Of a DNA stretch of 64,000 nucleotides, positions 6,733 through 47,989 are shown piece after piece. The translations under genes and the position numbers were made by a program. How positions within the stretch are numbered: position 1 is the stretch's first letter; each line of letters opens with the position of its first letter. The stretch is from contig CAWGTX010000001.1 of assembly GCA_963825585.1 (NCBI GenBank), positions 669,613-733,612 of the forward strand, in the 5' to 3' direction. The DNA comes from an uncultured bacterium. GTDB taxonomy: Bacteria > Actinomycetota > Acidimicrobiia > Spongiisociales > ZC4RG35. Below the pieces are notes generated by a model that was given only the letters and a program-made list of their open reading frames with translations, made no database searches and was not told the DNA's origin.

Positions 6733-7389
6733 ATGAACAGGTTTTCGAGTACGTTCGAACGCCCGAAGCGGCGAAATCCGTCGGGTGCGGTCTTTTGGGT
6801 CTTCGTTTTCCTGGCGATTTCGATCCAGCCGCAGGTCCCGGCCTTCGCCCAGGTGTCGCCGTTCGACGACACCGCAGGATCGGTCCATGAGGCCGACATC
6901 GCCCTCCTCGCCGAGTGGGGGATCACCAAGGGTTGCACCGACTCCTCGTACTGCCCGGAGGTTTCGGTGACTCGAGGTCAGATGGCAGCATTCATGCGGC
7001 GATCGTTCGTGACACCCACCAGCCAATACGACTACTTCGGTGACGACGAAGACTCGGTGTTCGAAGCCGACATCAACTCGATCACGGGTGTGGGCATCAC
7101 CCAAGGATGCAATCCGCCCACCAGTTCGCAGTACTGCACCGACGACGTGCTCACCCGGGGTCAGATGGCTGCCTTCCTCCGTCGCACGCTGAGCCTCCCG
7201 GCAGGGCCCGACGTGTTCTCCGACGACGAGAACTCGGTGTTCGAGGCGGACATCAACGCTCTCGCCGCCGCCGGCATCGCCAAGGGGTGCTCCGATGGCC
7301 GGTTCTGCCCCGATGACGTGATCACGCGAGCACAGATGGCCAGCTTCCTGGTCAGGGCACTCGACCACCTCGGATGCCGGGGGGCATGA
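6733..7389 (+). CDS. Small secreted protein made of three SLH (S-layer homology)-like repeats
   Basis: Signal-like N-terminus. Three ~55-aa repeats F-DD--SVFEADI--L---GI--GC-----CP---VTRGQMAAFL-R-L match the SLH consensus (F.D....w...aI..L...GI..G.....F.P...iTRaE.A..L.ral), with an added conserved Cys pair. Confidence 0.7.
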   Translation: MNRFSSTFERPKRRNPSGAVFWVFVFLAISIQPQVPAFAQVSPFDDTAGSVHEADIALLAEWGITKGCTDSSYCPEVSVTRGQMAAFMRRSFVTPTSQYDYFGDDEDSVFEADINSITGVGITQGCNPPTSSQYCTDDVLTRGQMAAFLRRTLSLPAGPDVFSDDENSVFEADINALAAAGIAKGCSDGRFCPDDVITRAQMASFLVRALDHLGCRGA

Positions 7390-9077
7390 CCATGACAGAA
7401 CTCAACCGTCGACAGTTCCTCCGCCGCGCCGGGCTGGTGGCCGTCGCCACCGGAGTCCCTGCGGTGGCATCCGTCACCCGTCCGCAGGCCGCCCAGGCCG
7501 CCACGCTCACCACCGACACCACCGTGTCGACCCTCACCGTCGCAGCGGGCGAGGTGTACGAGTTCGACCCGAACCGATCGGTCACGCTCACCGTCACGGG
7601 CGGTGGCGACGCCGCGTTGATGGTGCTCGGCACGCTGCGGATGCGCCCGGCCAGCGCCGGCATCGTCCACAAGATCCGGTTCACCGGCGGCGGCGAGATC
7701 ATGGTGATGGACAATGGTCGTCTCGACATCCAAGGGACGACGAAACAGGCGTGGAACCGTACCGGCGACCATGCCACGTGGACCTCCCAGGATCAGCTGA
7801 TCGTCGCTCCCATCAACCCCGGCGACTACACGTTCCGCTCCTTCACCAAGGGTGGGACGGTTCAGCAGGTCAGCAACCGCCACGGTGTGTTCAAGGCCGA
7901 GGTGATGAACCTGACCCGCAACGTCGTGATCGAGGGCACCACCTCGGTTCCGATGCGGCGCATCATGCTCATGTCCAATGTCGCCCAGACCATCAACTAC
8001 GCCGAGGTCCGGTACGTGGGCGACCCCGACGAGATCGGCTTCTACCCGATCCACTTCCACCTGATGGGGGAGGGTGCCAGGGGGAGCGTGGTCGAGGGCA
8101 CCGTCGTGCACCACGCCTACCACCACGCGTTCGTCGTGCACGGCAGCCACGGCGTCACGCTGCGCGACTGTGTCGCCTACGACGTCGAGGCCGACGCCTA
8201 CTGGTGGGATCTGCCGCCCGAGAACGACTTCGACAACGACATCAACAACACCCACGACGTCGTGTACGAGAACTGCATCGCCGCCGACGTGCATCGGGCC
8301 GACCTCAACGATCCGGTTTCCCGGCCCAACGAGTTGTCCGGATTCCTCATGGGTGCGGGTGTCAACAACACGGTCCGTGGCTGCGTGGCCGTCGGGGTGG
8401 GCGGCGGGGTTCGGACATCCGGCTACCACTGGCCCTCGAAGGCGAACTCGCAGACCAGTCCCTGGGTGTTCGAGGACTGCATGACCCACAACAGCCGTGA
8501 GTACGGCATCTTCGTGTGGCAGAACACTGCATCCGAGCGTCACAACATCGATCGGTTCGTCTCGTTCAACAACGGGTTGGGACCGGTGAAGCACGGCGCA
8601 TACAACAACCGGGGATACCACTACCGCGACTGTGTGTTCTTCGGGAACGGCGGGGGCCTGGAACAGAACGCCCAGACCACCGTTCCCGAGAGCAACCAGA
8701 CCAAGGAGCGGCTGTCGTTCGAACGCACCGTTTTCGACGATGCGCCGGTTTCGCTGCTCATGGTCGACCACAACCTCGACCCGTCACAGCCAACGCTGTA
8801 CCTCGACTGTGAGTTCGCCGGACAGTTGGTCGTGAACAACGATCGCCGTCACGGCTGGTACGACTTCGTTCGGTGCAACGTCTCGGAGTCGGACTTCGAC
8901 CTCTCCGACATGAAGCCTGAGTCGATCATCCGGATCCAGGACGCCAACGGCGACGCCGTCGAGATCACCACGTCCGGCTCGCGATCGATCCCGGCGTTCT
9001 GGGACGGCTGGTCCTCGACGGTGCCCAAGCCCGGCCAGGAGTTCCCCGACTGGGATCCCTCCTGTGGTAATCGCTGA
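7383..9077 (+). CDS. Tat-signal secreted protein, probable right-handed beta-helix carbohydrate-active enzyme (function unknown)
   Basis: Twin-arginine motif NRRQFLRRAGLVAVATG...AQAA. Gly/Asn/Thr/Val-rich sequence with His clusters (IHFHLMGEG, HHAYHHAF). Its start overlaps the end of the SLH-repeat gene. Confidence 0.6.
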   Translation, partial: GMTMTELNRRQFLRRAGLVAVATGVPAVASVTRPQAAQAATLTTDTTVSTLTVAAGEVYEFDPNRSVTLTVTGGGDAALMVLGTLRMRPASAGIVHKIRFTGGGEIMVMDNGRLDIQGTTKQAWNRTGDHATWTSQDQLIVAPINPGDYTFRSFTKGGTVQQVSNRHGVFKAEVMNLTRNVVIEGTTSVPMRRIMLMSNVAQTINYAEVRYVGDPDEIGFYPIHFHLMGEGARGSVVEGTVVHHAYHHAFVVHGSHGVTLRDCVAYDVEADAYWWDLPPENDFDNDINNTHDVVYENCIAADVHRADLNDPVSRPNELSGFLMGAGVNNTVRGCVAVGVGGGVRTSGYHWPSKANSQTSPWVFEDCMTHNSREYGIFVWQNTASERHNIDRFVSFNNGLGPVKHGAYNNRGYHYRDCVFFGNGGGLEQNAQTTVPESNQTKERLSFERTVFDDAPVSLLMVDHNLDPSQPTLYLDCEFAGQLVVNNDRRHGWYDFVRCNVSESDFDLSDMKPESIIRIQDANGDAVEITTSGSRSIPAFWDGWSSTVPKPGQEFPDWDPSCGNR

Positions 9078-9210
9078 ACCCCATTGAGGCGACGGCCACC
9101 CGTGTTAGCCTGCTCAGCGGGGCGGCGGTAGAGCGCGGATTCCGGGACAAGTACCAATCGACGATCGGTGCGACGCGTTCCGGTTCTCCGCACCCGACAG
9201 GGGAAGGGCC

Positions 9211-10251
9211 ATGACGAGCGGAGATGTGATGACGGGTCCGGCGGTCGCCGGCAACGCAGAGACCAGGGGTGTGGTCGTTCGCGACGTCACCAAGGTCTAC
9301 AAGCCATCCTCGAAGGTGCTCAGCTTCCTGCTCCGTTCGCCCATCAAGAACGACGTTCACGCCCTCAACGGAATCAGCTTCTCGGTGCCCGCCGGGGAGA
9401 TCTGTGCTGTCGTCGGCCCCAACGGTGCCGGGAAGTCGACCACGTTCCGGATCCTGATCGGGCTGACCACCCCCACCACCGGCTCGGCCACCATCATGGG
9501 AATGAGCTGTGTGACCGAGTCGATGGAGGTCCGAAAGGTCATCGGATGGATGCCTTCGGAGGATCGAAGCCTGCTCATGCGCCTCAGCTGCGCCGACAAC
9601 CTGGTGTTCCACGGTCAGTTGCAGGGTCTCAACGGCAACAAGCTCAAGCAGCGCATCCAGGAGTCGCTCGATCTGGTGGGCATCGGGCACCGGGCCCGGG
9701 ACTCGGTGTTCTCGTTGTCATCCGGAATGCGGGCGCGGCTCCAGCTGGCCCGTTCGCTCCTGCATCAGCCCAAGGTGCTCATCCTCGACGAGCCCACCGC
9801 CACCGTCGACCCGATCGCCTCGTACGAACTCATCAACACCCTGCAGCGGGTTGCGGCTGAACGCAACATGTCGGTGCTCATCAGCTCGCACCGCCTCGAC
9901 GAGATCGAAGCGCTCAGCTCGCACGTGATCCTGCTCGACGGCGGCGCCATCAAGTACGACGGTGATCTCGAATCGCTCCGGGACCTGTGGACCCGGCCCA
10001 GGGTCGTCGCCGAGTTCCGGGATCCCGATGCGGCCCGGACCGCCGAGAAAGCCCTGTCGTCGGGTCAGGTGGTGGAAGTCGACACCACCGAGAGCATGGG
10101 AGTGGGCGGCCTTCTGGTCGCAGGGGCCACCATCGGAGACGTGGTGTCGTCGCTGCCGCCCGAATCCACTCGGGCGCTCATCACCATCCGGGAGGACCGA
10201 ATGCCCCTCCGTGACCTGCTCGCCGCCGTCTACCGGGGTGACCAGGTATGA
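9211..10251 (+). CDS. ABC transporter ATP-binding protein, ABC-2/Wzt/TagH-like polysaccharide exporter, with ~95-aa C-terminal extension
   Basis: Walker A GPNGAGKST, signature LSSGMRARL, Walker B LILDEPTATVD. Its stop overlaps the start of the downstream permease. Confidence 0.85.
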   Translation: MTSGDVMTGPAVAGNAETRGVVVRDVTKVYKPSSKVLSFLLRSPIKNDVHALNGISFSVPAGEICAVVGPNGAGKSTTFRILIGLTTPTTGSATIMGMSCVTESMEVRKVIGWMPSEDRSLLMRLSCADNLVFHGQLQGLNGNKLKQRIQESLDLVGIGHRARDSVFSLSSGMRARLQLARSLLHQPKVLILDEPTATVDPIASYELINTLQRVAAERNMSVLISSHRLDEIEALSSHVILLDGGAIKYDGDLESLRDLWTRPRVVAEFRDPDAARTAEKALSSGQVVEVDTTESMGVGGLLVAGATIGDVVSSLPPESTRALITIREDRMPLRDLLAAVYRGDQV

Positions 10252-11072
10252 AGCGCATCAAGGCGAAGCTGTGGAGGATGAAACAGACCTCTATGGCCTT
10301 CCTCCGTGCCGACATCGTCGAAGAGGCGAGTTATCCGATGTCGCTGGTGCTCGGCCAGGCCGGCATCGTTGTGCCGATCTTCGTGTCGTTCTTCATCGCC
10401 GACCTCGTCGGTGACTCCAGGGAGGTGGGTGGCGACTACCTCACGTTCGCCACCGTCGGGCTGGCCATGAGTGCCGCCCTCCAGGCCACCCTGCAGGGGT
10501 TCGGAACCCGGCTCCAACAGATCCAGGACCGCGGTCTGTTCGAGTCGATCCTGGTGGAGCCGATCAAATGGTTGTGGATGCCGGTCGCCATGAACCAGTG
10601 GAACATGTTCCGGGGGTTCATCAACGCCATCTTGTTGCTGCTCATCGGCAGTGCCCTCGGCGCCGACATCCGGCTGGCGGGCATCGGCGCCACTGTGGTG
10701 ATCGTGTTGGCGGGGATGGCGGCGGTCAGTTCGATCGGCATCCTTTCTGCCAGCCTGATGGTGCTCGCCAAACGTTCCCAGCCGGTGGTGGTGCTGTACG
10801 GCCTGGCCGCATCGATCTTCGGTGGCGCCCTGTTCTCGTTGTCGCAGCTGCCCACCTGGCTGCAACCGATCAGCTACCTCTTCCCGCACACCTACGTGCT
10901 CAACGGCGTCCGTTCGGCGTTGATGGACGATCCGGGCACCTTCGTGATGCCGGTTCCGGATGCGCTGCTCGGACTCGGCATCACAACCCTGGTGGTGGGC
11001 GGCATCGGGCTGTTCCTGTTCCAGAAGTCGTTGCAGACCGCCCGCGAACTCGGCCTGCTCAGCGGGTACTGA
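10248..11072 (+). CDS. ABC-2 type transporter permease (Wzm-like)
   Basis: Six-TM hydrophobic profile typical of ABC-2 permeases. ATGA overlap with the ATPase gene. Confidence 0.8.
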   Translation: MKRIKAKLWRMKQTSMAFLRADIVEEASYPMSLVLGQAGIVVPIFVSFFIADLVGDSREVGGDYLTFATVGLAMSAALQATLQGFGTRLQQIQDRGLFESILVEPIKWLWMPVAMNQWNMFRGFINAILLLLIGSALGADIRLAGIGATVVIVLAGMAAVSSIGILSASLMVLAKRSQPVVVLYGLAASIFGGALFSLSQLPTWLQPISYLFPHTYVLNGVRSALMDDPGTFVMPVPDALLGLGITTLVVGGIGLFLFQKSLQTARELGLLSGY

Positions 11073-11073
11073 C

Positions 11074-11940
11074 ATGACGGCCGTCAAGGAGCTCGCCCGC
11101 CAGAAGCTCTCGGTCAACGCCCGGCACCAGATCTCGCTCCTCCGGGTGAAATCACGGATGGCATGGCCGTCCATGGGCATGCTCCCGAACGTGCTCGTGA
11201 TCGGAGCCCAGCGGGCCGGCACGTCGTCGATCTACCGCTACCTCGGATCACATCCCGACGTGTTCGCCTCACTCCGCAAGGAGGTCGAGTACTTCTCGAC
11301 GCGGATGTCGATGGGGGAGCGCTGGTACCGGGCCCATTTCCCGTTGATCACCCGCCCCAAGCTGGCGTTCGAGGCAACCCCCGACTATCTGCTGCATCCA
11401 AGGGCGGCCGAACGTGCCGCCGCACGCATCCCCGACCTCAAAGCGGTGGCGCTCCTCCGAAGCCCCGTCACCCGGGCCTTCAGCCAGTACGGCCATCAGC
11501 GTCGTTTGAACAAGGAGCCGCTGAGCTTCATCGATGCGCTCCGGGCCGAGCCCGAGCGCATCGCCGGCGACCTGGATCGACTGGCCGCTGATCAGGACCA
11601 CCCCGGCATCGAAGTCCGCGTCCACGGCTACATGGAACGGGGCCGCTACGCCCCGCAACTCCAACGCTGGGTCGACGCCCTGGGACGCGAGCGCATCCAC
11701 GTGATCCGCACCGAAGACCTGTGGGCCGACCCGGCCGGCACGTACACCGGCCTGCTCGACTTCCTCGGCCTGCGCCACGTGATGCCCTCTTCCCTCGGCG
11801 AGAACTACAGCTACGTGAGGGACACCCCCAAACCCGAGAAGGCGATGCCGCCAGAAGCCGAGGCCCACCTCCGCCAGCAACTCCAGCCCGAGATCGAAGC
11901 GATCGAGGCGATGCTCGGGCGGCAGATGGGGTGGCTCTAG
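11074..11940 (+). CDS. PAPS-dependent sulfotransferase family protein
   Basis: LPNVLVIGAQRAGTSSIYRYL 5'-PSB motif. ATG at 11074 lies 2 nt after the permease stop. The longer ORF start at 10960 would overlap the permease. Confidence 0.8.
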   Translation: MTAVKELARQKLSVNARHQISLLRVKSRMAWPSMGMLPNVLVIGAQRAGTSSIYRYLGSHPDVFASLRKEVEYFSTRMSMGERWYRAHFPLITRPKLAFEATPDYLLHPRAAERAAARIPDLKAVALLRSPVTRAFSQYGHQRRLNKEPLSFIDALRAEPERIAGDLDRLAADQDHPGIEVRVHGYMERGRYAPQLQRWVDALGRERIHVIRTEDLWADPAGTYTGLLDFLGLRHVMPSSLGENYSYVRDTPKPEKAMPPEAEAHLRQQLQPEIEAIEAMLGRQMGWL

Positions 11941-17525: not shown

Positions 17526-17771
17526 CTATCCGACCTTCCCGCTGACGAGTCCCGTGATCTTGGCGATGGATTCGAAGTTCTCGGGGACCAGCTCCTCATC
17601 GTCGATCTCGATGTCGTATTCGGTCTCGAGGAACGAGATGATTTTGAAGATGCCGAGGGAGTCCACCACTTCCTTCTCGAGGAGGGGATAGTCGGCGGTC
17701 AGGTCCTCGGGGGCGCCGTCCCAGCTCAGCTCGCCGGCGATGAAGTCACGGATCCCGATCTCGATGCTCAT
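17526..17771 (-). CDS. Acyl/peptidyl carrier protein (standalone)
   Basis: 81-aa ORF with the phosphopantetheine attachment motif VVDSLGIFKIISFLE. ATGA overlap with the upstream adenylation gene. Confidence 0.75.
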   Translation of the reverse strand: MSIEIGIRDFIAGELSWDGAPEDLTADYPLLEKEVVDSLGIFKIISFLETEYDIEIDDEELVPENFESIAKITGLVSGKVG

Positions 17772-19342
17772 AGGTGAACTCCTTCTGCTGATTGCTTCAG
17801 TTCTTGACGGTTGATCTTGCCGGTGGATGTCTTGGGGAGCACCTCGAGCAGTTCGAAGTGCTCGGGAATCATGTATGGCGGTACGGCTTCCTTGCAGTGG
17901 TGCAGCAGGTCGGCGACGGTGACGCCGTCCTTGACCGTAGCGAACCCGAACAGGCGATTCGTGACCAGATCGTCGGGTACCGCCACCACCGCGAACTCGA
18001 CCACTCCGGGGTGCCGGTACATCGCCGTTTCGATCTCGCCCAACTCGATGCGGTAGCCGCGGCTCTTGATCTGGTTGTCGCGGCGACCCAGGAAGGTGTA
18101 GTCGCCGTTCTCGTCTTCTCTGACCAGGTCGCCGGTCTTGTAGACCGGGTCGACGATCTCACCGGCGAACGGGTCGGGTGCGAGCCGTTCGGCCGTGCGG
18201 GCGGGGTCTCCCCAGTACCCGGCCATGACGGTGCCGGATCTGATCCACAGCTCACCAACCTCGCCCTTCGGCACCAAGGCCCCGTCTTCACTCACCACGT
18301 ACCCGTCGGTGTTGGGGATGGGACGACCGATGGGGATGTCGCCACCCTCCGGGTCCGGGATCGTCGGCACGTTGTAGAAGGTGCACACGTTGGTTTCGGT
18401 CGGCCCGTACAGATTCGAGAAATGCACGTGGGGGAGGAGGCTCATGAGCTGGCTCAGATACTTGGTGGGGAACACCTCGCCGGCGAACAGCATCCAACGC
18501 AAATCGGGGAAGGCGTCCTGCTCGAGCTTGCCCCGCTGCAACACCATCGACAGGATCGACGGCACCGAATACCACACCGTGATGCGGTGCTCTGAGATGA
18601 AGCGGTTGATCTTGACCGGGAACACCGACGCCATCGCCGGCACCAGGAACAGCGTCGCCCCGGCGTGGGCGCTCGAGTAGAGGTCGAGGATCGACAGATC
18701 GAAGTGGAAGGGGGCGTGGCTCGACAACCGATCGTCGTGGGTGATGCCGTACTCGTCGACGGTCCAGTTCACGAACACGAGGGCGTTCCGGTGCGTCAGC
18801 TTCACGCCCTTCGGTGCCCCGGTGGACCCCGACGTGTAGATGATGTAGGCGAGATCCTGATCGATCGCCCTGGCGTCGGGATCCTCGGAGGAGGCCGCCT
18901 CCACCTCTGATGACGCGACGAGTGTCAGACCGTCGATCGGGTCGGCCTCCCCGTCCATGACGATCACCGTCGCCAGCTGTGACGGCTCGGCGAGCTCGCT
19001 CCACGCGTCCCGGCGATCTGCGGCGCTGACGAGGACCTCGATACCGCAGTTGCCGACGATGTAGCCGGAGCGAGTGGTGGGGGCCTTCACGTCGATGGAC
19101 ACGTAGGCGGCGCCTGTCTTGAGGACGCCGTACACGCCGATGACGGCTTCGAGCGACTTGTCGAGGTAGAGCCCGACGCGGCTGCCACGGCTGACGCCGT
19201 GTGCCCGCAACGTGTTCGCCAGCCGGTTGGCGGCGGCGTTCAGCTCGGCGTACGTGAGCGATCGATCGCCGTCCACCACGGCGGGGTGGTCCGGATACAT
19301 CCGGGCCGATCGTTCGAGAAGTCCGTGCAGCGTGAAGCTCAT
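17768..19342 (-). CDS. Standalone amino-acid adenylation (A-domain) enzyme, DltA-like
   Basis: A-domain core motifs YTSGSTGAPKGV (A3), NLYGPTE (A5), YKTGDLVR (A7), LGRRDNQIKSRGYRIELGEIE (A8) and LPKTSTGKINR (A10). ATGA overlap with the upstream ACAD gene. Confidence 0.85.
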   Translation of the reverse strand: MSFTLHGLLERSARMYPDHPAVVDGDRSLTYAELNAAANRLANTLRAHGVSRGSRVGLYLDKSLEAVIGVYGVLKTGAAYVSIDVKAPTTRSGYIVGNCGIEVLVSAADRRDAWSELAEPSQLATVIVMDGEADPIDGLTLVASSEVEAASSEDPDARAIDQDLAYIIYTSGSTGAPKGVKLTHRNALVFVNWTVDEYGITHDDRLSSHAPFHFDLSILDLYSSAHAGATLFLVPAMASVFPVKINRFISEHRITVWYSVPSILSMVLQRGKLEQDAFPDLRWMLFAGEVFPTKYLSQLMSLLPHVHFSNLYGPTETNVCTFYNVPTIPDPEGGDIPIGRPIPNTDGYVVSEDGALVPKGEVGELWIRSGTVMAGYWGDPARTAERLAPDPFAGEIVDPVYKTGDLVREDENGDYTFLGRRDNQIKSRGYRIELGEIETAMYRHPGVVEFAVVAVPDDLVTNRLFGFATVKDGVTVADLLHHCKEAVPPYMIPEHFELLEVLPKTSTGKINRQELKQSAEGVHL

Positions 19343-20505
19343 GCGTCCACCGGTAGTCCCTGGAGTTTGGCGATCGTGTTGCGCATCGTCTCCGACGTTC
19401 CGGCCCAGATGGTGGCGGCCAGGCTGTCGCGGACGTGCTGTTGGATCTCGTGGTCATACAAGAAGCCGCGGACGCCGAACGGCTGCATGGCGTCGAGCAT
19501 GAACTGCTTGTACGTCTCTGTGACGAACAGCTTGGTGGCGGCTATGTCCTGCATCAGCGGCTGGGTCGATCCTCCCACCGACAGGCGTCCGGCGACGTCG
19601 TAGACGGCCATGCGAGCCATCTTGTGGCTGGTCACCAGGTCGGCGACCCGGGACGACACCTGCTGGAACGAACCGATCGGAGCGTCGTAGGCGTGACGGG
19701 TGCGGGTCCAGTCGGTGACGAGCCCAAGAACCCGCCGCATCGGGCCCAACAGGGCGGCCAGCACGGCGGATCGCTCCCAGCCAACCGATTCGGTGAGCAC
19801 GTTGAGACCGGCACCGGGCCGACCCACCACATGGCTCTTCGGGATCCTGACATCCTCGAAGATCAGCTCACCCATACGGACCGTACGGAAGCCGACCTTC
19901 TCGAAGTCCCGTCCGTACGAGGCTCCGGCACTTCTCATGTCCACCACGAAGGCACTCAGAGCGAACGGAGAGCGTCCTTCGCCGGTGAGGGCGAACACGA
20001 GGGCGACGTCGGCCATCGGGGCGTTGGTGATGTAGGCCTTGGCGCCGTTCAACACCCAGCCCTCGCCGTCTTTCACCGCCCGGGTCGAGGTCGAGTAGAT
20101 GTCGCTACCGGAGGCCTCTTCGGTGAAGGCGTAGGCGAGCGAGAGGTCGCCCCCGATCGCCGGCCGGACGACCGTCTCACGGACCTCTTCGGAAGCCATC
20201 ATCAGCAGGGGCATCTGCACTCCAAACACCTGCGATGCCATGGCGTAGAGCATGCCGCTGTCGGTGATGGCGGTCCCGATGCCCTCGAACGCGGCGACGG
20301 CGTGGGCCACGGACAGGCCACGGCCGCCCATCGTCTCGGGCATACACACTCCGAGGGCACCGGCGGAGGCGGCCGCCTTCCAGGTCTCGGGGTCGTATCC
20401 GCTGGGGTCGTCCCAGTTCTGGCGGGGTGCCGCCAGGCGAGCGGCGGCGACGCCCTCGAATTCGTCCCGGATCTCGTCGAGGGATGAGTCCTGCCAGGGT
20501 TGCAC
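19339..20505 (-). CDS. Acyl-CoA dehydrogenase family protein (ACAD-like, 2nd of pair)
   Basis: ACAD fold throughout (...GWVLNGAKAYITNA...). GTG at 20505 lies immediately after the upstream ACAD stop at 20508-20510. The longer track start at 20610 would overlap the upstream gene by ~100 nt. Confidence 0.8.
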   Translation of the reverse strand: MQPWQDSSLDEIRDEFEGVAAARLAAPRQNWDDPSGYDPETWKAAASAGALGVCMPETMGGRGLSVAHAVAAFEGIGTAITDSGMLYAMASQVFGVQMPLLMMASEEVRETVVRPAIGGDLSLAYAFTEEASGSDIYSTSTRAVKDGEGWVLNGAKAYITNAPMADVALVFALTGEGRSPFALSAFVVDMRSAGASYGRDFEKVGFRTVRMGELIFEDVRIPKSHVVGRPGAGLNVLTESVGWERSAVLAALLGPMRRVLGLVTDWTRTRHAYDAPIGSFQQVSSRVADLVTSHKMARMAVYDVAGRLSVGGSTQPLMQDIAATKLFVTETYKQFMLDAMQPFGVRGFLYDHEIQQHVRDSLAATIWAGTSETMRNTIAKLQGLPVDA

Positions 20506-20507
20506 GG

Positions 20508-21725
20508 CTACCAGTAACTCTCTTCGAGTTTGGTCACGTCGGTGCCGAGTGAGGCCTTGCCGACGTAGCGCAGGCAGTCGTCGCTCTTGGCCGGCATGAG
20601 ACCGCCACATCGGGCGTCGCGGTAGAGCCGTTCGAGCGGCATCCGTTTGGAGATGGTCGAGCCACCGCAGATGCGAATCGCCATCGAGGCCAGCTCCGGG
20701 GCGACCTCGCCCACCAGGTACTTGGCCCGGTGGATGGCGACGTTGGCTTCAGGTGTGCCGGGGCGTTCGGTCACGAGACGGGCCGCCTCGTAGGTGACGG
20801 CCCGGGCGGAGGCGAGCTTGATGTCCATCTCCCCGATCTGATACTGGACCACCGGGTCGTCGGCTCCCGTCTTGTCGGTGCCGGCGATGGTCTTCTTGGC
20901 GAGATAGTCGGTCGTGAACTCCATGATGGCCGTGGAGATCCCCAGATAGGCGCCGTTGTAGCCGCCCACCTGCCAGTGCGGCTGGCTGAGGAGCTTGTAG
21001 AAGGCCATGCCCTCACTGCCCATGAACAGCAGCTCCTTGGGAACGAACACATCCTGCAGATAGACGGTGTTCGACGTGGTACCCCGCATGCCCAGTACGT
21101 CCCACACCTCTTCGATGGTGATGCCGGCGGAATCCTTGGCGACGCAGAAGTACGAGAGCGTGGGGACCGATCCGGTGGTGTCATTGGCGGGTCGGGCGGC
21201 CACAACGTAGTAGTCGGCGAAGCCGGCCATCGACACGAACGACTTGACCCCGTTGAGAACGTATCCGTCGGGGGTTCGTTCATAGGTGGTCTTGAGCTGG
21301 CTGTACTTGGCCCCGACGCCGGGTTCGGTGGTGGCCGATGCGAACACCTTCCCGCCCTCGACCGCCTGGGCGAACAGCCAGTCGGCAAAGCCCCGCATTC
21401 GGTCGCCGTGGCGACCGGGGATCTCGGCCAGGTCGAGTTCGGCGACGCCACCCATCACGATGTTGTGCATGTTGTAGGTGAGGGCGGTGGCGGCGTGACC
21501 CTTGCCGATCTGTTCCAGCACCTTGGTGTAGGTCAGGAAGTCGGCGCCCATGCCACCTTTCGAGGCGGGGACCATGATGCCGAGCAGGCCGGCGGCTCTG
21601 AGGTCATCGAAGTCCTGGACCGGGAAGGAACCTTCCCGGTCGTGTTTCCCTGCTCGGGTCGCGAATACCTGACCCAGCTCTGAAGCGAGGTTGATAACGT
21701 GTCCCGGGTCAAGTGTCGTTTCCAT
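20508..21725 (-). CDS. Acyl-CoA dehydrogenase family protein (ACAD-like, 1st of pair)
   Basis: ACAD fold (YVLNGVKSFVSMAGFADYYVV..., C-terminal helical domain). ATG METTLDPG confirmed at 21725. Confidence 0.8.
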   Translation of the reverse strand: METTLDPGHVINLASELGQVFATRAGKHDREGSFPVQDFDDLRAAGLLGIMVPASKGGMGADFLTYTKVLEQIGKGHAATALTYNMHNIVMGGVAELDLAEIPGRHGDRMRGFADWLFAQAVEGGKVFASATTEPGVGAKYSQLKTTYERTPDGYVLNGVKSFVSMAGFADYYVVAARPANDTTGSVPTLSYFCVAKDSAGITIEEVWDVLGMRGTTSNTVYLQDVFVPKELLFMGSEGMAFYKLLSQPHWQVGGYNGAYLGISTAIMEFTTDYLAKKTIAGTDKTGADDPVVQYQIGEMDIKLASARAVTYEAARLVTERPGTPEANVAIHRAKYLVGEVAPELASMAIRICGGSTISKRMPLERLYRDARCGGLMPAKSDDCLRYVGKASLGTDVTKLEESYW

Positions 21726-21851
21726 GTGGACCTCCCCATCTACCGGTTGTCTGGTCCGCCCCCGAACCGTCCGCACCCATTCCTCACCCTGCCCGGCAGA
21801 CAGCGTAGTTGCTACCCGGTCGAGGCCAAGGGGGAAGGTTCCGACCGCGGG

Positions 21852-22769
21852 TCAGCGGTGTCGGATCGATGCGGTGACCCTGTCGATCCACTCGAACGAC
21901 AGGGAAAGGAACGCCTCCTGGCCGTCGACGGCCGGGAACCCGTGAATGGTGCCAGGGAGATCGCGAATGACCTCGACGGTGTCGCCGGCGCGGTCGAGGA
22001 TCGTTCCGAGCCGGCCTTCGGCGGCCCGATCGAACTCCCGAAGCAGGGGGTCGTCGAGTCCGTAGGCAACGAGCACCGGCACTCCACGGTCGACCATCTG
22101 GTCGAGTGGGTCGAGCAGCTGCTTGCTCACCCACCACAGCGGATCGCGTGCGCCAGCCGGCTTCACCCCGCCGGTGAGCTTGCGGGTGACCTGCTTCAGC
22201 TTGCTCCTGGCGAGCTTGACGTAGAAGGCCCGTCTGACCGGGTCCGTGAGGCCCTTGAAGGTCTTGGCCCTCAATGCGAGTGAGGCGTACTCACCGATCG
22301 AACGGTCCCGCGCCATCCGCTCCGCCACCGCTTCGGTGCGTTCGTAGCTACCCACAGGCGGCGTGGCCATCAGGACACCGACGACGTCGTCGAGGAGCGG
22401 CGCAGTGGACAGTGCCGTCCGTGAAGAGAAGCACGCACCGGCGAGCACGATCGGTCCGGCCCCGTGTTGGCGCAACACCTCGGCGGCGGCCACGGCGTCC
22501 TCGGTGAACGGGGCGCTCAGGCGAAGCTCGCCCACGGTACCGGTTGACTCGCCCAGCCCGTGGTAGTCGAATCTCAAACAGGTGTAGCCACGTGACGCCA
22601 GGTCTCGGGATATCCGAACCGCCAGTCGGTTACGTTGCAGCGAGACGTTGACTGTGTCGCCGCCCTGGATCACGAGCACGCCCACACCGTTGGACTGTTC
22701 GGGGTGCGAAATGATCCCGAACAGTCGCGCACCAACGGCGTCGAAGAAGACCGGCGTTTCGTTGATCAT
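21852..22769 (-). CDS. Alpha/beta-hydrolase fold protein (paralog 1; candidate Cys nucleophile in LAGACFSS elbow)
   Basis: VLVIQGGDTVN...RFDYHGLGESTG resembles the HGxGxS region of alpha/beta hydrolases. ATG MINETPVFF at 22769 is in an ATGA overlap with paralog 2. Confidence 0.55.
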   Translation of the reverse strand: MINETPVFFDAVGARLFGIISHPEQSNGVGVLVIQGGDTVNVSLQRNRLAVRISRDLASRGYTCLRFDYHGLGESTGTVGELRLSAPFTEDAVAAAEVLRQHGAGPIVLAGACFSSRTALSTAPLLDDVVGVLMATPPVGSYERTEAVAERMARDRSIGEYASLALRAKTFKGLTDPVRRAFYVKLARSKLKQVTRKLTGGVKPAGARDPLWWVSKQLLDPLDQMVDRGVPVLVAYGLDDPLLREFDRAAEGRLGTILDRAGDTVEVIRDLPGTIHGFPAVDGQEAFLSLSFEWIDRVTASIRHR

Positions 22770-23620
22770 GGGCGAACCTCCGCCAGCCATCCGGCGGTGA
22801 GATCGACGAGAGCGTCGTCGAGCAGTGCACCCTCCTCCGGTCTGAGCAGGTTGACGTCCTGGTGGAACCACCACGCCTCTTCGAACTCGAGAGGGTGGAC
22901 TGTGGCATCCCGTCCAGCTGCCTCGGCGACAGTCGTCGCGGCGGTGATGTCCTTGCGGATGTCCGTGGAGCGGCCGAGTTGTGCAATCAACACCGGGCCG
23001 GTTCCGGCGCCGACTTCCAGGGACCTGGTCAACGAACTATCGCGCAGTCCTTTTGTCACGGAGAATCCGGCGATGTCGAGGGAGCCGCCGGTGGAGAACT
23101 CATCCTCGAGATCGGCGGCTGTCCTGTTGCCCCCGTGTTTCACTCCGAGGATCAGCACCGCCCGGGTCAGCTCGCGGAAATAGCGTTTGCCTTCGTTGAC
23201 CGGCTCCCAGAACACGAGGCGCGACTCGGGAGCGGTGACCGGTGTGGTGGCGAGGGCAGCGAGGCGGGTGGCCACCACGTCGATGGTGCCGACCCCGGCC
23301 ACCTCGAGCAGGCGGTCGATGGCGGTTGACGCATCGGCGGCCATGGAGTCGATGGTGAGATCGGATGCCTCGCCTGAGCTGTTGCCGGTCCCGCGGTAGT
23401 GGAACCGTTGGGCGGCGAAACCCAGCGACGCCAGCCGCCGGCCGAGCATCACCTCCCGGCGGTTGTTCTTGAGGAACTCCGAGTGGAGCGGGGAGCAAAT
23501 GAGCACCCGGCCGATCGGATCCGATGCCGGAAGATGGGTGACGCCGAATAGATCACCGAAGAAGCCCACCTGTTCGGTGGTGCCGTCACCCAGCTCCAAT
23601 GTCGTCACTCGTGCCCCCAT
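22766..23620 (-). CDS. Alpha/beta-hydrolase fold protein (paralog 2; nucleophile position replaced, VATRLAA)
   Basis: Alignable with paralog 1 (VLICSPLHSEFLKNNRREVMLGRRLASLGFAAQRFHYRGTGNSSG versus VLVIQGGDTVNVSLQRNRLAVRISRDLASRGYTCLRFDYHGLGESTG), but lacks the G-x-Nu-x-G elbow. Confidence 0.5.
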   Translation of the reverse strand: MGARVTTLELGDGTTEQVGFFGDLFGVTHLPASDPIGRVLICSPLHSEFLKNNRREVMLGRRLASLGFAAQRFHYRGTGNSSGEASDLTIDSMAADASTAIDRLLEVAGVGTIDVVATRLAALATTPVTAPESRLVFWEPVNEGKRYFRELTRAVLILGVKHGGNRTAADLEDEFSTGGSLDIAGFSVTKGLRDSSLTRSLEVGAGTGPVLIAQLGRSTDIRKDITAATTVAEAAGRDATVHPLEFEEAWWFHQDVNLLRPEEGALLDDALVDLTAGWLAEVRP

Positions 23621-23818: not shown

Positions 23819-25009
23819 ATGTGGAAGCGGTTTCGACGGTTCGGCGGCGCGGCGGGGATGGTGGGTCTCGCCGCTCTGGTGGTGCTCGGAGTGACGCCGG
23901 TTCCGGCCACGGCCGCACCGGGTGACGTCGGTGTGCTGGGTTGCTCGAACACTGCCATCGCTGCCATCGGGTACAACCAGGTCTCGGATGTCGGTCGGTT
24001 GTGGCCCGCGTCCACCGACGACAACCCCTTTGCCGATTACTGGGGCAACGACATCGTGAAGTGGGCTGACGTGAACGGTCAGGGTCGCAGCGCTTGGGCA
24101 GCGTTCGATGCCGAGCTCGGTGCCAACCCCTCCACAACCGCCGTGTGGTTCCAGGTGTGCGTCCGGGCCGAGACTCCGGGCTCGACCGTCACCGTCGACA
24201 CGATCGTCGCCGAGATCCGGCGACGGCTCCCGCAAGTCACCGTCTACGCCAGTCCTCTCGACGACACTCCCTCGTGCCTGATCGGTGATCCGGACCTTTC
24301 GCTCGAGTACGTGGACCATCTCGTGGACACCGGTCAGGCCTTGCGCGGTCCGACTTTGAGTCCTCTTCCGCCCGACCAGGTGAAGGGTTGCCACGCCTCC
24401 GGCGACGGCATCGACCTGCACGGTGCCGATCTGGCGGCCTTCTTCGACGATGGTGCACTACCCCAGCCCGGCCCTGAACCGAGCGGATTCGTCGACGTCG
24501 GATCGGACCACGTGTTCTCGGCCGATATCGCCTGGCTGGCCGCCCGGGGGATCACCGTTGGATGCAACCCCCCCTCCAACGACCGCTTCTGTCCGGAAGA
24601 ACCGGTGTCACGCGGCCAGATGGCGGCGTTCCTCGCACGTGCGCTCTCGCTGCCCCCATCCGAAGTCGACGCATTCGCAGACGACGCCGGCTCTGTGTTC
24701 GAAGCCGAGATCGACGCCCTCGCCGCAGCCGGCATCACGTCCGGATGCTCGTCGCAGGGCTTCTGTCCCGACGATCCGGTCACGCGGGCGCAGATGGCGA
24801 CGTTCCTCGTCAACGCCTTCGACCTGACCGGGGGCGAGGGGACCGACCTCTTCAGCGACGACAGCGGCGTCCACGAGTTGGACATCGACACGCTCGGAAC
24901 CTCGGGCGTGACCCAGGGCTGCAACCCGCCGCTCAACGATCGCTACTGCCCCGACGATCCCGTCACGAGAGGCCAGATGGCCGCATTCCTGCATCGCGCC
25001 GAGGGGTGA
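23819..25009 (+). CDS. Secreted protein with unknown ~200-aa N-terminal domain and four C-terminal SLH-like repeats
   Basis: Signal peptide MWKRFRRFGGAAGMVGLAALVVLGVTPVPATAAPGD, then four repeats of the type FVDVGSDHVFSADIAWLAARGITVGCNPPSNDRFCPEEPVSRGQMAAFLARAL. Confidence 0.7.
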   Translation: MWKRFRRFGGAAGMVGLAALVVLGVTPVPATAAPGDVGVLGCSNTAIAAIGYNQVSDVGRLWPASTDDNPFADYWGNDIVKWADVNGQGRSAWAAFDAELGANPSTTAVWFQVCVRAETPGSTVTVDTIVAEIRRRLPQVTVYASPLDDTPSCLIGDPDLSLEYVDHLVDTGQALRGPTLSPLPPDQVKGCHASGDGIDLHGADLAAFFDDGALPQPGPEPSGFVDVGSDHVFSADIAWLAARGITVGCNPPSNDRFCPEEPVSRGQMAAFLARALSLPPSEVDAFADDAGSVFEAEIDALAAAGITSGCSSQGFCPDDPVTRAQMATFLVNAFDLTGGEGTDLFSDDSGVHELDIDTLGTSGVTQGCNPPLNDRYCPDDPVTRGQMAAFLHRAEG

Positions 25010-27567: not shown

Positions 27568-27586
27568 TTTCCAGGAGAGGTAGGCG

Positions 27587-42888: not shown

Positions 42889-43077
42889 TGCTGGCTGCTG
42901 GCTGCTGGCTGCTGGCTGCTGGCGAAGAGTCGTCCGAAGCAGCGCGAAAGGGGCTGGGTCGACCGCTCCGGCGTGAGGACCGCTGCCGCTCTGCCCCATC
43001 TGTCGCGGCTTCGCTGCGCTTCCGGGCGTTCTGCGTTCTGCGTCTGGCTGGCAGCTGGTAGCTGGTAGCTACCAGCT
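42889..43077. repeat. Intergenic repeat element: (CTGGCTG)4-5 array at 42889-42916 and 11-bp-stem palindrome AGCTGGTAGCT-GGT-AGCTACCAGCT at 43053-43077
   Basis: Exact heptamer array. Perfect hairpin overlapping the stop of the convergent CysQ gene. Confidence 0.6.
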
Positions 43078-43849
43078 ACTTCGTGATCTCCTGAACCGCT
43101 TCCATCAGCGCTCCATTCGTTGCGAGGAAGCCTGTCAGGAGTGGGTCGGGGCGGTTGAAGCGGGGTTGTGTTCCGTCGAGGAATCGCACCTGGCCGCCAC
43201 CGGCCACCACCAGGGCGGCACCGCCGACCACGTCCCACTCGTTCTTGGGGACCAGGGTCCAGGTGGCGTCGGCCAGGCCTGCAGCCACCAGGCCGAGTTT
43301 GTAGGCGACCGAGCCCATGTTGCGGACTGAGACCGGGGTACGGAAGAAGCGGTCCCACTCACCCCGCTTGACTTCGCTGCGGCTGGCGAGCACGAGTGCG
43401 CCGTCGATCGACCGGGTGGATGTGACGCCGGCCGGCTGACCGTTCAGCGTGACCCCGTGGCCAACCGCACCGAGGATGAGGTGGTTGGGCCCGGGCGCCA
43501 GGATGCCCCCGGCGACCGGGAGACCGTCCTCGACCAGCCCGATGGAGACGCACCACTCCGGGATGCCGTCGACGAACTCGCGGGTGCCGTCGAGCGGATC
43601 TACCACCCACACCCGGGAACACTCGAGGCGGCCCACGTCGTCGGCGGTCTCCTCGGAGAGCCATCCTTCTCCCGCCTCGAGCAGGGACTCCTTCATGATG
43701 GCGTCGATGAGGATGTCGGCCTCGGTCACCGGATCGCCCCCGGCCTTTGCGGAGGCGGCCACCGAACCCGCCGTGAACGACTGGAGGGCGGATCCGGCGC
43801 GCGTGAGCGCCGCCTCGATGCGGTCCAGATCCTTGGTGTACTTGCTCAT
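43076..43849 (-). CDS. cysQ: Inositol-monophosphatase family protein, probable 3'(2'),5'-bisphosphate nucleotidase (CysQ-like PAP phosphatase)
   Basis: WVVDPLDGT and WDVVGG motifs. Lies next to the cysDN-cysC genes and a sulfate-type transporter. Confidence 0.65.
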   Translation of the reverse strand: MSKYTKDLDRIEAALTRAGSALQSFTAGSVAASAKAGGDPVTEADILIDAIMKESLLEAGEGWLSEETADDVGRLECSRVWVVDPLDGTREFVDGIPEWCVSIGLVEDGLPVAGGILAPGPNHLILGAVGHGVTLNGQPAGVTSTRSIDGALVLASRSEVKRGEWDRFFRTPVSVRNMGSVAYKLGLVAAGLADATWTLVPKNEWDVVGGAALVVAGGGQVRFLDGTQPRFNRPDPLLTGFLATNGALMEAVQEITK

Positions 43850-43862
43850 CTCACTCCAGGTT

Positions 43863-45629: not shown

Positions 45630-45683
45630 GAGACGAAGCTACGGTCTAGCAGCTCTCGCCATTTCGGATATCCTGTGCTGCTC

Positions 45684-46589
45684 ATGTCGTACCAGCTGGA
45701 CCACCTGCGCGCGCTCGAAGCCGAGTCGATCCACATCATCAGGGAAGCAGTGGCCGAGGGCGAACGCCCCGTGCTGCTGTTCTCCGGGGGCAAGGACTCG
45801 GCTGTCGTTCTGCGCCTCGCCGTCAAGGCGTTTCACCCTGCCCGCCTTCCGTTTCCGGTCATGCACGTCGATACCGGGCACAACTTCCCCGAGGTGATCG
45901 AGTTCCGCGACCGAACCGTCGCCGAGCTCGGCTGCACCCTCATCGTCGCCTCCGTACAGGAGTCGATCGATGCGGGTCGTGTCGTCGAGGAGACCGGCCC
46001 CCGGGCCAGTCGCAATCGACTCCAAACCGAGTCGCTGCTCTCGGCGATCGAGGAGAACCAGTTCGACGTCGTGTTCGGGGGTGCCCGGCGTGACGAGGAG
46101 AAGGCCCGTGCCAAGGAGCGGGTGTTCAGCTTCCGGGACGACTTCGGTCAGTGGGATCCGAAGAACCAGCGGCCCGAGCTTTGGAATCTCTACAACGCCC
46201 GCCATCGCAAGGGTGAGCATCTCCGGGTGTTCCCGATCTCGAACTGGACCGAGATGGACATCTACCAGTACATCCTCGACGAGCAGATCGACCTTCCGTC
46301 GGTGTACTTCTCCCACACCCGCCGTGTGTTCGAGCGGGACGGCATGCTCATGGCCGAGAACCCCCATCTCACCCTCATGGACAGCGAAGAGATCTTCGAG
46401 CGGGTGGTGCGGTTCCGCACGGTTGGCGACATGACCTGCACCGGCGCATTCGAATCGGTCGCCGCCAACATCGAGGACATCATCATCGAGGTGGCGGCCA
46501 GCCGTGTCACCGAACGTGGCGCCAGCCGGGCCGATGACAAGACGACCGAGGCCGCCATGGAGGATCGCAAGCGTGAGGGGTATTTCTAG
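45684..46589 (+). CDS. cysD: Sulfate adenylyltransferase subunit 2
   Basis: PAPS-reductase-fold PP-loop LFSGGKDSAVVL. Alternative GTG start at 45675. Confidence 0.9.
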   Translation: MSYQLDHLRALEAESIHIIREAVAEGERPVLLFSGGKDSAVVLRLAVKAFHPARLPFPVMHVDTGHNFPEVIEFRDRTVAELGCTLIVASVQESIDAGRVVEETGPRASRNRLQTESLLSAIEENQFDVVFGGARRDEEKARAKERVFSFRDDFGQWDPKNQRPELWNLYNARHRKGEHLRVFPISNWTEMDIYQYILDEQIDLPSVYFSHTRRVFERDGMLMAENPHLTLMDSEEIFERVVRFRTVGDMTCTGAFESVAANIEDIIIEVAASRVTERGASRADDKTTEAAMEDRKREGYF

Positions 46590-47870: not shown

Positions 47871-47878
47871 GAATGCAG

Positions 47879-47966: not shown

Positions 47967-47989
47967 CGCCGCTGAGTATTGGAGTCTTC

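Follow-up and report, generated by a model that had tools for sequence, protein, structure and literature searches.

What do a stand-alone amino-acid-activating enzyme, its carrier protein, two flavoenzymes of the acyl-CoA dehydrogenase (ACAD) fold and a pair of alpha/beta-hydrolase-fold proteins accomplish together, when no assembly line is encoded nearby to receive their product? This question is raised by six minus-strand genes on contig CAWGTX010000001.1 of an uncultured bacterium of the class Acidimicrobiia (assembly GCA_963825585.1), which we followed in a 64-kb stretch of DNA, hereafter the window, with a G+C content of 63-69%; the nearest public relatives are metagenome-assembled genomes (MAGs) of Acidimicrobiia. 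A sequence-only reading had listed the six genes and assigned them to the families just named, and all of them are present as it described (Table 1); polyketide synthase (PKS) and non-ribosomal peptide synthetase (NRPS) genes, which it reported as absent, are indeed not found in the 64 kb. Its interpretation, that an aminoacyl group undergoes oxidation while tethered to the carrier and is subsequently processed by the hydrolase-fold pair in a glycan context, appears right in outline. The corrections that we propose concern the amino acid, which would be proline, the second ACAD, which is a homologue of the N-oxygenase ChmG, and the exosortase-associated genes, which are relatives of the present set and do not include it. 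On the sequence evidence we give slightly better than even chances to an arrangement of two modules in series, a cassette that would convert proline into an N-hydroxypyrrolyl thioester of the acyl carrier protein (ACP), and a hydrolase-fold pair, hyd2/hyd1, that would transfer the acyl group, likely to a sulfated envelope glycan.

The identity of the amino acid is indicated by the adenylation (A) enzyme. Against TIGR01733, the NCBIfam profile for amino-acid adenylation, this protein scores 391.5 bits, above the cut-off of 317.4, and it remains under the cut-off of every fatty-acyl ligase, DltA and exosortase-ligase model. Its best single-domain match in the PDB is PltF, an L-proline-[prolyl-carrier-protein] ligase (345 bits), other single A domains reaching 270 bits at most; DltA scores about 204 bits and the model TIGR01734 gives 272.9 bits against a cut-off of 559.85, and the earlier description of the enzyme as DltA-like is therefore abandoned. 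A 141-residue pocket segment aligns with PltF without gaps at 128.6 bits, followed by another proline ligase at 89 bits and by all the rest at 69 bits or less. Extraction of the selectivity code, which had been suggested as a check, yielded D-L-L-Y-L-A-L-V-C with a terminal K, identical to that of PltF at 9/9 aligned positions, Asp235 included. The code equals the published consensus of stand-alone proline enzymes, L(L/F)YLALVC (PMC3874040), and is close to that of ChmJ, D-L-F-Y-A-A-I/L-V-C-K (preprint supplement of the chalkophomycin study, PMC11177257). At the level of sequence the A enzyme meets the description of an L-proline-specific, PltF-like stand-alone adenylation enzyme. Two analogies had been put forward for the oxidation cassette, namely aminomalonyl-ACP formation as in zwittermicin biosynthesis and the conversion of prolyl- into pyrrolyl-peptidyl carrier protein (PCP); since the A enzyme carries the proline code of PltF and is not serine-activating, the former is excluded and the latter is the correct one. 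As for the carrier, it matches the ACP families AmcB and OlsHI-ACP in NCBIfam, scores 18.4 bits with Pfam PP-binding, slightly under the gathering score, and displays in its translation a DSLG motif with Ser38.

A system in which two different ACAD-fold enzymes act on a prolyl carrier protein has been described for chalkophomycin. There, ChmJ loads proline on ChmI; ChmG, a KijD3-like ACAD-fold enzyme in which Met replaces the catalytic Glu, N-oxygenates the prolyl-ACP; ChmH, a Glu-bearing ACAD, dehydrogenates the ring to give N-hydroxypyrrolyl-ACP; and ChmF, an alpha/beta hydrolase encoded beside chmGHIJ, releases the acid specifically from N-hydroxypyrrolyl-ChmI (Crooke et al., JACS 2024, PMC11177257). 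The identity between ChmG and ChmH is reported as only 22%, and that to RedW as 24% for ChmG and 31% for ChmH (PMC11177257). The two ACAD-fold proteins of the window, ACAD-A and ACAD-B, can be told apart in the same way. For ACAD-B, the best NCBIfam families are RedW (NF045652, ProlPCPDhRedW; 269.3 bits, cut-off 650) and PigA (NF053553; 259.2 bits, cut-off 500), which suggests that it works like a prolyl-carrier dehydrogenase without being a strict equivalog. Its top PDB matches are 6cxt_B, which is Bmp3 (PMC11177257), AnaB (4irn) and the PigA-type 5zw0; it retains the catalytic Glu, its GWERS aligning with DWERC of Bmp3 and SWERG of ChmH, and shares the motifs WER and YSGTS with Bmp3. ACAD-A is devoid of this Glu and has Gln252 in its place, within the conserved motif PHWQVGGY; two uncharacterised "ACAD type 2" entries come first among its PDB matches, and KijD3, the nitrososynthase ORF36, DnmZ and the monooxygenase DszC follow. 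Across the alignment the Glu is present in ACAD-B and every ACAD-B-like neighbour, and missing from every ACAD-A.

Both proteins were also compared with LflChmG and LflChmH, the sequences of which were machine-read from the codon-optimised genes of the assayed enzymes in the preprint supplement; because these contain frameshift errors, a frameshift-aware dynamic-programming alignment was used. ACAD-A scores 639 with LflChmG, at an identity of about 45% over 361 positions, and 110 with LflChmH, at 27%; ACAD-B scores 407 with LflChmH, at about 38% over 328 positions, and 72 with LflChmG, at 23%. Given that ChmG and ChmH differ so widely from each other, the reciprocal match is specific, and the view of two ACAD-like oxidases of one kind gives way to a pair made of a ChmH/Bmp3-type dehydrogenase, ACAD-B, and a homologue of the N-oxygenase ChmG, ACAD-A. 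The block of A enzyme, ACP and two ACADs would thus most likely follow the logic of ChmJ/I/G/H and make N-hydroxypyrrole-2-carboxyl-S-ACP.

The remaining two genes encode hyd1 and hyd2, whose structure models show a confident alpha/beta-hydrolase fold (predicted local distance difference test scores of 88 and 91) and have structural neighbours in common, namely feruloyl esterases, PET46, GrgF, the thioesterase DcsB, LuxD and dienelactone hydrolases. The proposed paralogy of the two proteins is borne out, as a distant one (hhalign probability 99.1%, 23% identity between the families). The cysteine pointed out at the elbow of hyd1 (LAGACFSS) is Cys113, which is invariant in 35/35 homologues and aligns with the nucleophilic Ser of solved esterases; Asp240 is Asp or Glu in the same 35. 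The loss of the nucleophile reported for the other paralogue is equally real, the elbow residue of hyd2 being Arg119, a position held by Arg in most of 69 homologues and by Ser or Cys in none. Distant pairs from Acidobacteriota, Verrucomicrobiota and a deltaproteobacterial MAG show the same division, one partner having G-x-C-x-G and a His and the other no nucleophile. As this loss is family-wide and extends to distant phyla, the paralogue that had been called catalytically dead does lack a nucleophile, but it represents a conserved Arg-elbow design and not local decay.

Gene fusions bear on how the pair may function. A profile search of 1.84 billion representative proteins gave 1,247 clusters at E<=1e-30, and the top 150 of these include 6 proteins of about 600 residues; hyd fusions exist in both orders, hyd2 then hyd1 in P0191 and hyd1 then hyd2 in P0189. 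In L086 (L-numbers designate the loci of relatives), from a member of the Cyclobacteriaceae, a 995-aa protein consists of an A domain followed by carrier and hyd2-like domains, the latter with the elbow GIRMG, and a hyd1-like gene (GLCSG) comes next. These fusions argue that hyd1, hyd2 and the carrier act together, and they support a predicted hyd1/hyd2 heteromer acting on the carrier. No signal peptide is visible in the translation of either hydrolase. Moreover, tandem hyd2-hyd1 pairs occur within single glycan loci (four in L018, three in L032, two in L002/L012-L016), and arrays of 2-4 pairs fit several acceptor specificities better than one thioesterase.

The block had been placed inside a glycan locus. 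Glycan genes do exist in the window, but the nearest neighbours of the block are a sugar ABC importer, a protein with S-layer homology (SLH) domains and 2-oxoacid dehydrogenase E3/E2 genes; it is the comparative data that make the link to glycan genes convincing. Two loci of related Acidimicrobiia, L010 and L022, have orthologues (69-78% identity) of the window's genes at 7.4-11.9 kb, for a sulfotransferase, an ABC-2 permease, an ABC ATPase and a CEMIP protein, placed convergently and directly after the ACP gene; in the window, by comparison, an insertion of about 5.5 kb separates the six genes from this export/sulfation operon. In farther loci, sulfotransferases, family 4 glycosyltransferases (GT4) and CEMIP/G8 proteins are found around a set composed of hyd2-hyd1, an ACP, a proline A domain and an ACAD-B-type gene. 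A neighbourhood census had been recommended, and was carried out by de novo clustering of neighbours across about 69 loci: A domains were found in 31 of the 69, ACADs in 27, ABC ATPases in 20, GT4 in 16, sulfotransferases in 15 plus 8, UDP-sugar dehydrogenases in 13, polysaccharide deacetylases in 10, sulfatases in 9, and KDO8P-synthase-like, NTP-transferase and CapD genes in 7 each. PKS genes occurred in 1/69 loci and NRPS genes in 0/69, and no fatty-acid-degradation synteny was seen; these are the two settings that the sequence-only reading had held against its own proposal. The code DL[LF]YLALVCK is present in 16/22 related A domains beside hyd pairs.

The ACAD-A family has more than 2,000 detectable relatives, many in Bacteroidota glycan loci, and the whole four-gene cassette recurs in polysaccharide loci of this phylum, with identities to the window of 58% for ACAD-A, about 50% for ACAD-B, about 42% for the ACP and 47% for the A enzyme; the order ACAD-A, ACAD-B, (ACP), A is kept from Actinomycetota to Bacteroidota. 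In L086 (positions 4010-7835, GCA_021604845.1) the A-PCP-hyd2 fusion and the hyd1-like gene are followed by ACAD-A/ACAD-B/ACP/A; the surrounding polysaccharide locus also contains Bac_transf, WecG, sulfatase and heparinase II/III genes. L085 (8001-16653, Fulvivirgaceae bacterium BMA10) has the four-gene cassette with no hydrolase pair nearby; an Acetyltransf_6 (FemAB-like) gene lies between ACP and A, and a DUF354 gene, one for a 362-aa protein of unknown family and an Antibiotic_NAT-family gene are found downstream. These extra genes may provide an alternative machinery for transfer onto an amino sugar. When the window and the Actinomycetota loci were searched by tblastn with the Acetyltransf_6, Antibiotic_NAT and 362-aa proteins of Bacteroidota, nothing matched, and consequently the Acetyltransf_6 gene of the window cannot be tied to the operon in this way. 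Among L004, L011, L018 and L020, the A-domain codes are altered (DLWYLALVCK; DMPYTAQVCK and DMAYSAQVCK), which suggests a different amino acid or oxidation state; together with the occurrence of ACAD-A without ACAD-B, these codes indicate that the acyl product probably varies.

Some other arrangements were recorded among the relatives. A large canonical ACAD is transcribed divergently in L004 and L011, and L018 also has an ACAD-A; L002-type loci contain an ACP and a sulfotransferase, with no A domain within 10 kb; and in L005/L006 (GCA_964579415.1) the order is reversed, ACP-hyd1-hyd2, between argS and lysA-hom in an actinobacterial housekeeping string, with no ligase nearby.

With respect to gene organisation, tight coupling had been proposed for the entire block, and four of its five junctions, read base by base, are of this kind. 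The ATG of hyd1 lies on the stop codon of hyd2 in a 4-nt ATGA overlap, ACAD-A and ACAD-B are joined as TAG-cc-GTG with a 2-nt spacer (GTG start at 20505), and the ACAD-B/A and A/ACP junctions are both ATGA overlaps. Between hyd1 and ACAD-A there is instead a gap of 126 nt, from the hyd1 stop at 21852 to the ACAD-A ATG at 21725, and ACAD-A has its own Shine-Dalgarno sequence, GGGGAGG; the genes therefore form two translationally coupled blocks in the same orientation, hyd2-hyd1 and ACAD-A/ACAD-B/A/ACP. Public gene calls for identical proteins agree in length for hyd1 (305 aa), ACAD-A (405 aa), the A enzyme (524 aa) and the ACP (81 aa). When considered as a regulatory RNA, the 126-nt spacer proved to be conserved in close relatives only and gave no Rfam match; promoter and terminator scans returned nothing above chance, and no terminator-like site was found in the spacer.

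The genes called hydrolase 1 and hydrolase 2 have been annotated as hypothetical equivalogs beside exosortase-associated exopolysaccharide loci since the TIGRFAM era, and a link between the present block and this set (TIGR03098/03100/03101) had been advanced. The link survives as a relationship: the best family of hyd1 is hydr1_PEP (TIGR03100; 66.7 bits, cut-off 168.45), that of hyd2 is hydr2_PEP (TIGR03101; 71.9 bits, cut-off 202.75), and ligase_PEP_1 (TIGR03098; 330.1 bits, cut-off 592.35) is second-best for the A enzyme. However, the three scores are far under the curated cut-offs and, among the Pfam-scanned open reading frames of the 64-kb window, no exosortase (EpsH), PEP-CTERM protein or pyridoxal-phosphate-dependent decarboxylase (TIGR03099) was seen, so that membership in the exosortase set fails; judged by sequence, the genes of the window are a sister branch of that set. 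The distant pairs of L075, L078, L079 and L082, considered as true exosortase-type members, are under the TIGR cut-offs as well. Similarly to the exosortase A set, the block combines a ligase, an ACP and an adjacent, diverged alpha/beta-hydrolase pair in an exopolysaccharide-type locus, the best matches pair by partner (hyd1 with hydrolase 1, hyd2 with hydrolase 2), and the split between a Cys enzyme and a nucleophile-less one is found in distant pairs too; the differences are that the window belongs to an actinobacterium with SLH proteins and that the acyl group here would be derived from proline and oxidised. A literature search for the chemistry carried out by the ligase, ACP and hydrolases 1/2 of exosortase loci returned nothing relevant.

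The following sequence of events can be envisaged. According to its selectivity code, the A enzyme would adenylate L-proline and load Ser38 of the holo-ACP; ACAD-A, by homology to the assayed ChmG, may N-hydroxylate the ring nitrogen of prolyl-ACP, and ACAD-B, by homology to the assayed ChmH, may then dehydrogenate the ring by means of its conserved Glu. This should yield N-hydroxypyrrole-2-carboxyl-S-ACP, or as a minimum the thioester of a pyrrolyl or dehydroprolyl group. In the second module, hyd2 and hyd1 would form a cytoplasmic heteromer in which the nucleophile-less hyd2 docks the carrier and Cys113 of hyd1 presumably takes the acyl group as a thioester, before passing it to an acceptor. 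The likeliest candidate is a sulfated glycan of the cell envelope, acylated on a hydroxyl or amino group; its assembly and sulfation would take place in the cytoplasm, and the neighbouring ABC-2 transporter would export it. The apparently cytoplasmic hydrolases, sulfotransferases dependent on 3'-phosphoadenosine 5'-phosphosulfate (PAPS), the ABC-2 exporter, the presence of several hyd pairs and the glycan context together point to modification of the glycan in the cytoplasm before ABC-2 export. It is the comparative context that favours an acyltransferase role for the hyd pair and a glycan as acceptor; N-hydroxylation, the acyl-Cys intermediate, transfer in preference to hydrolysis and the nature of the acceptor are what we infer.

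Several observations weigh against this scheme. The glycan genes of the window are dispersed, at least 5.6 kb from the six-gene block and with housekeeping genes between, and neither a flavin reductase nor a phosphopantetheinyl transferase gene was seen among the window's open reading frames scanned against Pfam. His276 of hyd1 is kept in 26/35 homologues and replaced in 9/35, and a classical triad is thus not universal in the family. The hyd2/hyd1 pair is nearest to an SLH-linked stand-alone pair in L009 (66/73% identity, against 48/59% for the cassette-linked pair of L010), whereas the cassette from ACAD-A to ACP is nearest to that of L010 (80-87% identity), L009 and L010 being from the same MAG; two units thus appear to have merged, perhaps at the 126-nt spacer, and the block may be a mosaic. 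With regard to ACAD-A, its nearest relatives (52-61% identity, Bacteroidota and others) are all uncharacterised and have Leu at the former Glu position, where the window protein has Gln252 and ChmG has Met, so that N-oxygenation is extrapolated from an identity of about 45% that was itself measured on machine-read DNA with frameshift errors. The product might instead be an ordinary pyrrole-2-carboxyl or dehydroprolyl group, ACAD-A carrying out a C-hydroxylation, the first two-electron oxidation or a reaction on another substrate. The position occupied by Gln is the one highlighted by the ChmG authors; in addition, most hyd-pair loci with a proline A domain have the ACAD-B type only, which would make pyrrolyl transfer the commoner case, and ACAD-A is found without ACAD-B in L004, L011 and L020. 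We nevertheless regard such a product as quite unlikely, given the near full-length identity of 45% to a proven prolyl-ACP N-oxygenase, far above that to other characterised ACAD-fold enzymes, the gene order conserved between phyla, and a fold class for ACAD-A that includes the N-oxygenases KijD3, ORF36 and DnmZ.

A different objection leaves the cassette as proposed and takes hyd2/hyd1 for a dedicated thioesterase only. ChmF, the sole characterised hydrolase of such a cassette, simply hydrolyses the thioester of N-hydroxypyrrolyl-ChmI, and its gene stands beside chmGHIJ (PMC11177257); hyd1 is structurally nearest to esterases and thioesterases (feruloyl esterases, DcsB, LuxD), and two more AMP-binding genes lie at 48.7-52.3 kb of the window. 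This is a serious competitor, although we hold it to be unlikely, seeing that the tandem hyd pairs suit several acceptors better; the structural neighbours reported for ChmF, which differ from those of hyd1, argue weakly against orthology. If transfer does take place, the acceptor could be a lipid or a protein in place of a glycan, for instance the SLH cell-wall protein encoded divergently. Its gene keeps this divergent position beside the closest hyd2-hyd1 pairs, including those with no adjacent cassette (L001/L009, L008), and about 200 aa at the N-terminus of its product fit no assignable family; this explanation is given little weight, since the SLH protein is a secreted one, with a Sec signal, and the hydrolases seem to stay in the cytoplasm, and since the SLH link is limited to the closest relatives, while the link to glycan genes spans the family and other phyla. 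Hardly any credence is left for a zwittermicin-type aminomalonyl-ACP cassette or a set for fatty-acyl activation and beta-oxidation (FadD/FadE): the domain set is superficially equal and generic FadD/FadE-type profiles match below threshold, but the A enzyme passes the amino-acid adenylation model and has a proline code with Asp235, the ACADs match the prolyl-carrier dehydrogenase and ChmG types, and synteny with fatty-acid degradation was not seen. Oxidation of carrier-bound proline, probably followed by transfer of the product to an envelope glycan, is the account that we favour.

The rest of the window provides the setting for this account (Table 1). Searches of Pfam and the PDB gave no relative for the roughly 200-aa domain at the N-terminus of the SLH protein; the same protein is the divergent partner beside hyd2-hyd1 in L001/L009, L007 and L008. 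Upstream of the block, beyond the SLH gene, there are 2-oxoacid dehydrogenase E3/E2, beta-lactamase-like and lipoate genes. The PAPS module is linked to the six-gene block by context only; it is complete and clustered with glycan genes, which is consistent with heavy PAPS use by the three sulfotransferases of the window.

Table 1. Features of the 64-kb window, beginning with the six-gene block (positions in nucleotides unless given in kb)
Feature	Position	Strand	Basis or remarks
hyd2, nucleophile-less alpha/beta-hydrolase-fold partner	22766..23620	-	284 aa; Arg119 at elbow (VATRLAA)
hyd1, alpha/beta hydrolase with Cys113-Asp240-His276	21852..22769	-	305 aa
Spacer hyd1/ACAD-A, 126 nt, ending in the ACAD-A Shine-Dalgarno sequence GGGGAGG	21726..21851	-	sequence read
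ACAD-A, ACAD-fold flavoenzyme, ChmG homologue, putative prolyl-ACP N-oxygenase	20508..21725	-	405 aa; Gln252
ACAD-B, prolyl-carrier-protein dehydrogenase type	19339..20505	-	388 aa from GTG 20505; GWERS
Stand-alone adenylation (A) enzyme, L-proline code DLLYLALVCK	17768..19342	-	524 aa
Acyl/peptidyl carrier protein (ACP)	17526..17771	-	81 aa; phosphopantetheine Ser38 in DSLG
SLH protein, secreted (Sec signal), ~200-aa N-terminal domain, three C-terminal SLH repeats	23819..25009	+	Pfam SLH, translation; divergent to hyd2
Convergent glycan-export/sulfation operon	7386..11940	+	Pfam; start codons
CEMIP beta-helix protein, twin-arginine (TAT) signal (MTMTELNRRQFLRR)	7386-9077	+	
ABC ATPase	9211-10251	+	
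ABC-2 permease	10248-11072	+	
Sulfotransferase	11074-11940	+	
PAPS supply module: CysQ-like phosphatase, sulfate/citrate-family permease, CysD, CysN, adenosine 5'-phosphosulfate (APS) kinase	43076..48580		Pfam Inositol_P, CitMHS/Na_sulph_symp, PAPS_reduct, GTP_EFTU, APS_kinase
CapD-like dehydratase, polysaccharide deacetylase, GT4	0-3.2 kb		Pfam
Sulfotransferase and Acetyltransf_6 (FemAB-like) gene	4-6 kb		Pfam; Acetyltransf_6 at 4830-5945
GT4 and deacetylase	33.7-35.8 kb		Pfam
YCII gene and sugar ABC importer	12.3-17.2 kb (importer 13.7-17.2 kb)		downstream of six-gene block

Other features of the window were noted in passing. A short open reading frame with an SLH domain (6718-7389) lies just upstream of the CEMIP gene, in another frame. 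The dihydrolipoamide acyltransferase (E2) at 27584-29502 (+) appears to be split over two overlapping frames, one with the lipoyl domains and the other with the E3-binding and catalytic domains, through either a frameshift or an assembly error. An open reading frame of 572 codons at 31678-33396 (+) combines the catalytic domain of an octanoyltransferase/lipoate ligase (LplA-B_cat) with lipoyl synthase (LIAS_N and radical SAM), an apparent LipB-LipA fusion. Two AMP-binding enzymes are encoded directly 3' of the APS kinase gene, at 48702-52290 (+), one of 565 aa and the other PaaK-like with AMP-binding_C_2. Finally, a second sugar ABC importer, accompanied by a GH16 gene, is encoded at 52413-61446 together with a 1,134-aa CBM11/Calx-beta/GH16 protein; this is probably a beta-glucan utilisation set unrelated to the six-gene block.

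To our knowledge, N-hydroxypyrrole-2-carboxyl, a hydroxamate-like metal chelator, has so far been found only in a few small-molecule natural products, and a literature search on pyrrolyl-modified polysaccharides gave nothing relevant. It can be speculated, as a tentative extension that we consider less probable than not to hold as a whole, that hyd2/hyd1 belong to an unrecognised class of carrier-protein-dependent O-/N-acyltransferases for envelope polysaccharides, common to these loci and to the exosortase hydrolase 1/2 pair, that they place N-hydroxypyrrole-2-carboxyl groups on a sulfated surface glycan in Acidimicrobiia, with variants in Bacteroidota, and that the resulting surface or exopolymer binds copper or iron. 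If this were true, N-hydroxypyrrole chemistry would not be confined to NRPS antibiotics and chalkophores and would apparently be widely used on cell-surface polysaccharides, and a new metal-binding glycan substituent would be predicted in abundant, uncultured soil Actinomycetota. The hydrolase 1/hydrolase 2 pair would in turn gain a testable substrate, an acyl-ACP of known mass and ultraviolet signature, as well as a testable architecture, in which a Cys enzyme is paired with an Arg-elbow protein, itself in some cases fused to the carrier. The interest of the locus resides in this offer of a defined substrate for an uncharacterised, widespread enzyme pair, and in the prediction of a glycan substituent without precedent.

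Comparison with known systems places the block between carrier-dependent decoration of envelope polymers and natural product biosynthesis. As in DltABCD and AlmEFG, a stand-alone A enzyme would load an amino acid on a small carrier in order to decorate an envelope polymer; here, however, the amino acid would be oxidised before transfer, the A enzyme is nearer to PltF than to DltA, and no homologues of the MBOAT protein DltB, DltD or AlmG occur among the Pfam-scanned open reading frames of the window. With the pyrrolyl-PCP systems (PltF/PltL/PltE, RedM/RedO/RedW, PigI/PigG/PigA, Bmp4/Bmp1/Bmp3, AnaC/AnaD/AnaB) the block shares the PltF code and the Glu of ACAD-B, and it departs from them in that ACAD-B is under the equivalog cut-offs, an extra ACAD of oxygenase type is present and the product does not go to a PKS, NRPS or halogenase. 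The likeness to ChmG/H/I/J of chalkophomycin and HrmK-N of hormaomycin (PMC11177257) comprises a stand-alone proline A enzyme with its carrier, a Glu-bearing ACAD, a Glu-less ACAD-fold enzyme and, with ChmF, an alpha/beta-hydrolase-fold gene adjoining the cassette. Unlike the chalkophomycin locus, the window, from an uncultured acidimicrobiial host with a sulfated glycan context, has no NRPS/PKS, no ChmK-type re-activating adenylase and no N-nitrosation genes, so that the product does not enter a ChmK/ChmL-type assembly line; a Cys-type hydrolase with an obligatory nucleophile-less paralogue stands where Chm has the single ChmF, and Gln replaces Met in the N-oxygenase homologue. For the last step, CloN7 and CouN7 of clorobiocin and coumermycin biosynthesis (CloN1-N7/CouN1-N7) are alpha/beta-hydrolase-fold acyltransferases that take a pyrrolyl group off a carrier protein and attach it, through an acyl-enzyme intermediate, to the hydroxyl of a deoxysugar. 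CloN7 is a single Ser enzyme, depends on a second carrier, CloN1, and a shuttle similar to beta-ketoacyl-ACP synthase III, CloN2, and has a small-molecule antibiotic as acceptor, whereas hyd1 has Cys in place of Ser, counterparts of CloN1 and CloN2 are not present in the window and the proposed acceptor is a polymer. By function, CloN7 and CouN7 would nonetheless offer a precedent for the transfer proposed here, that of a pyrrole-type acyl group from its carrier protein to a sugar.

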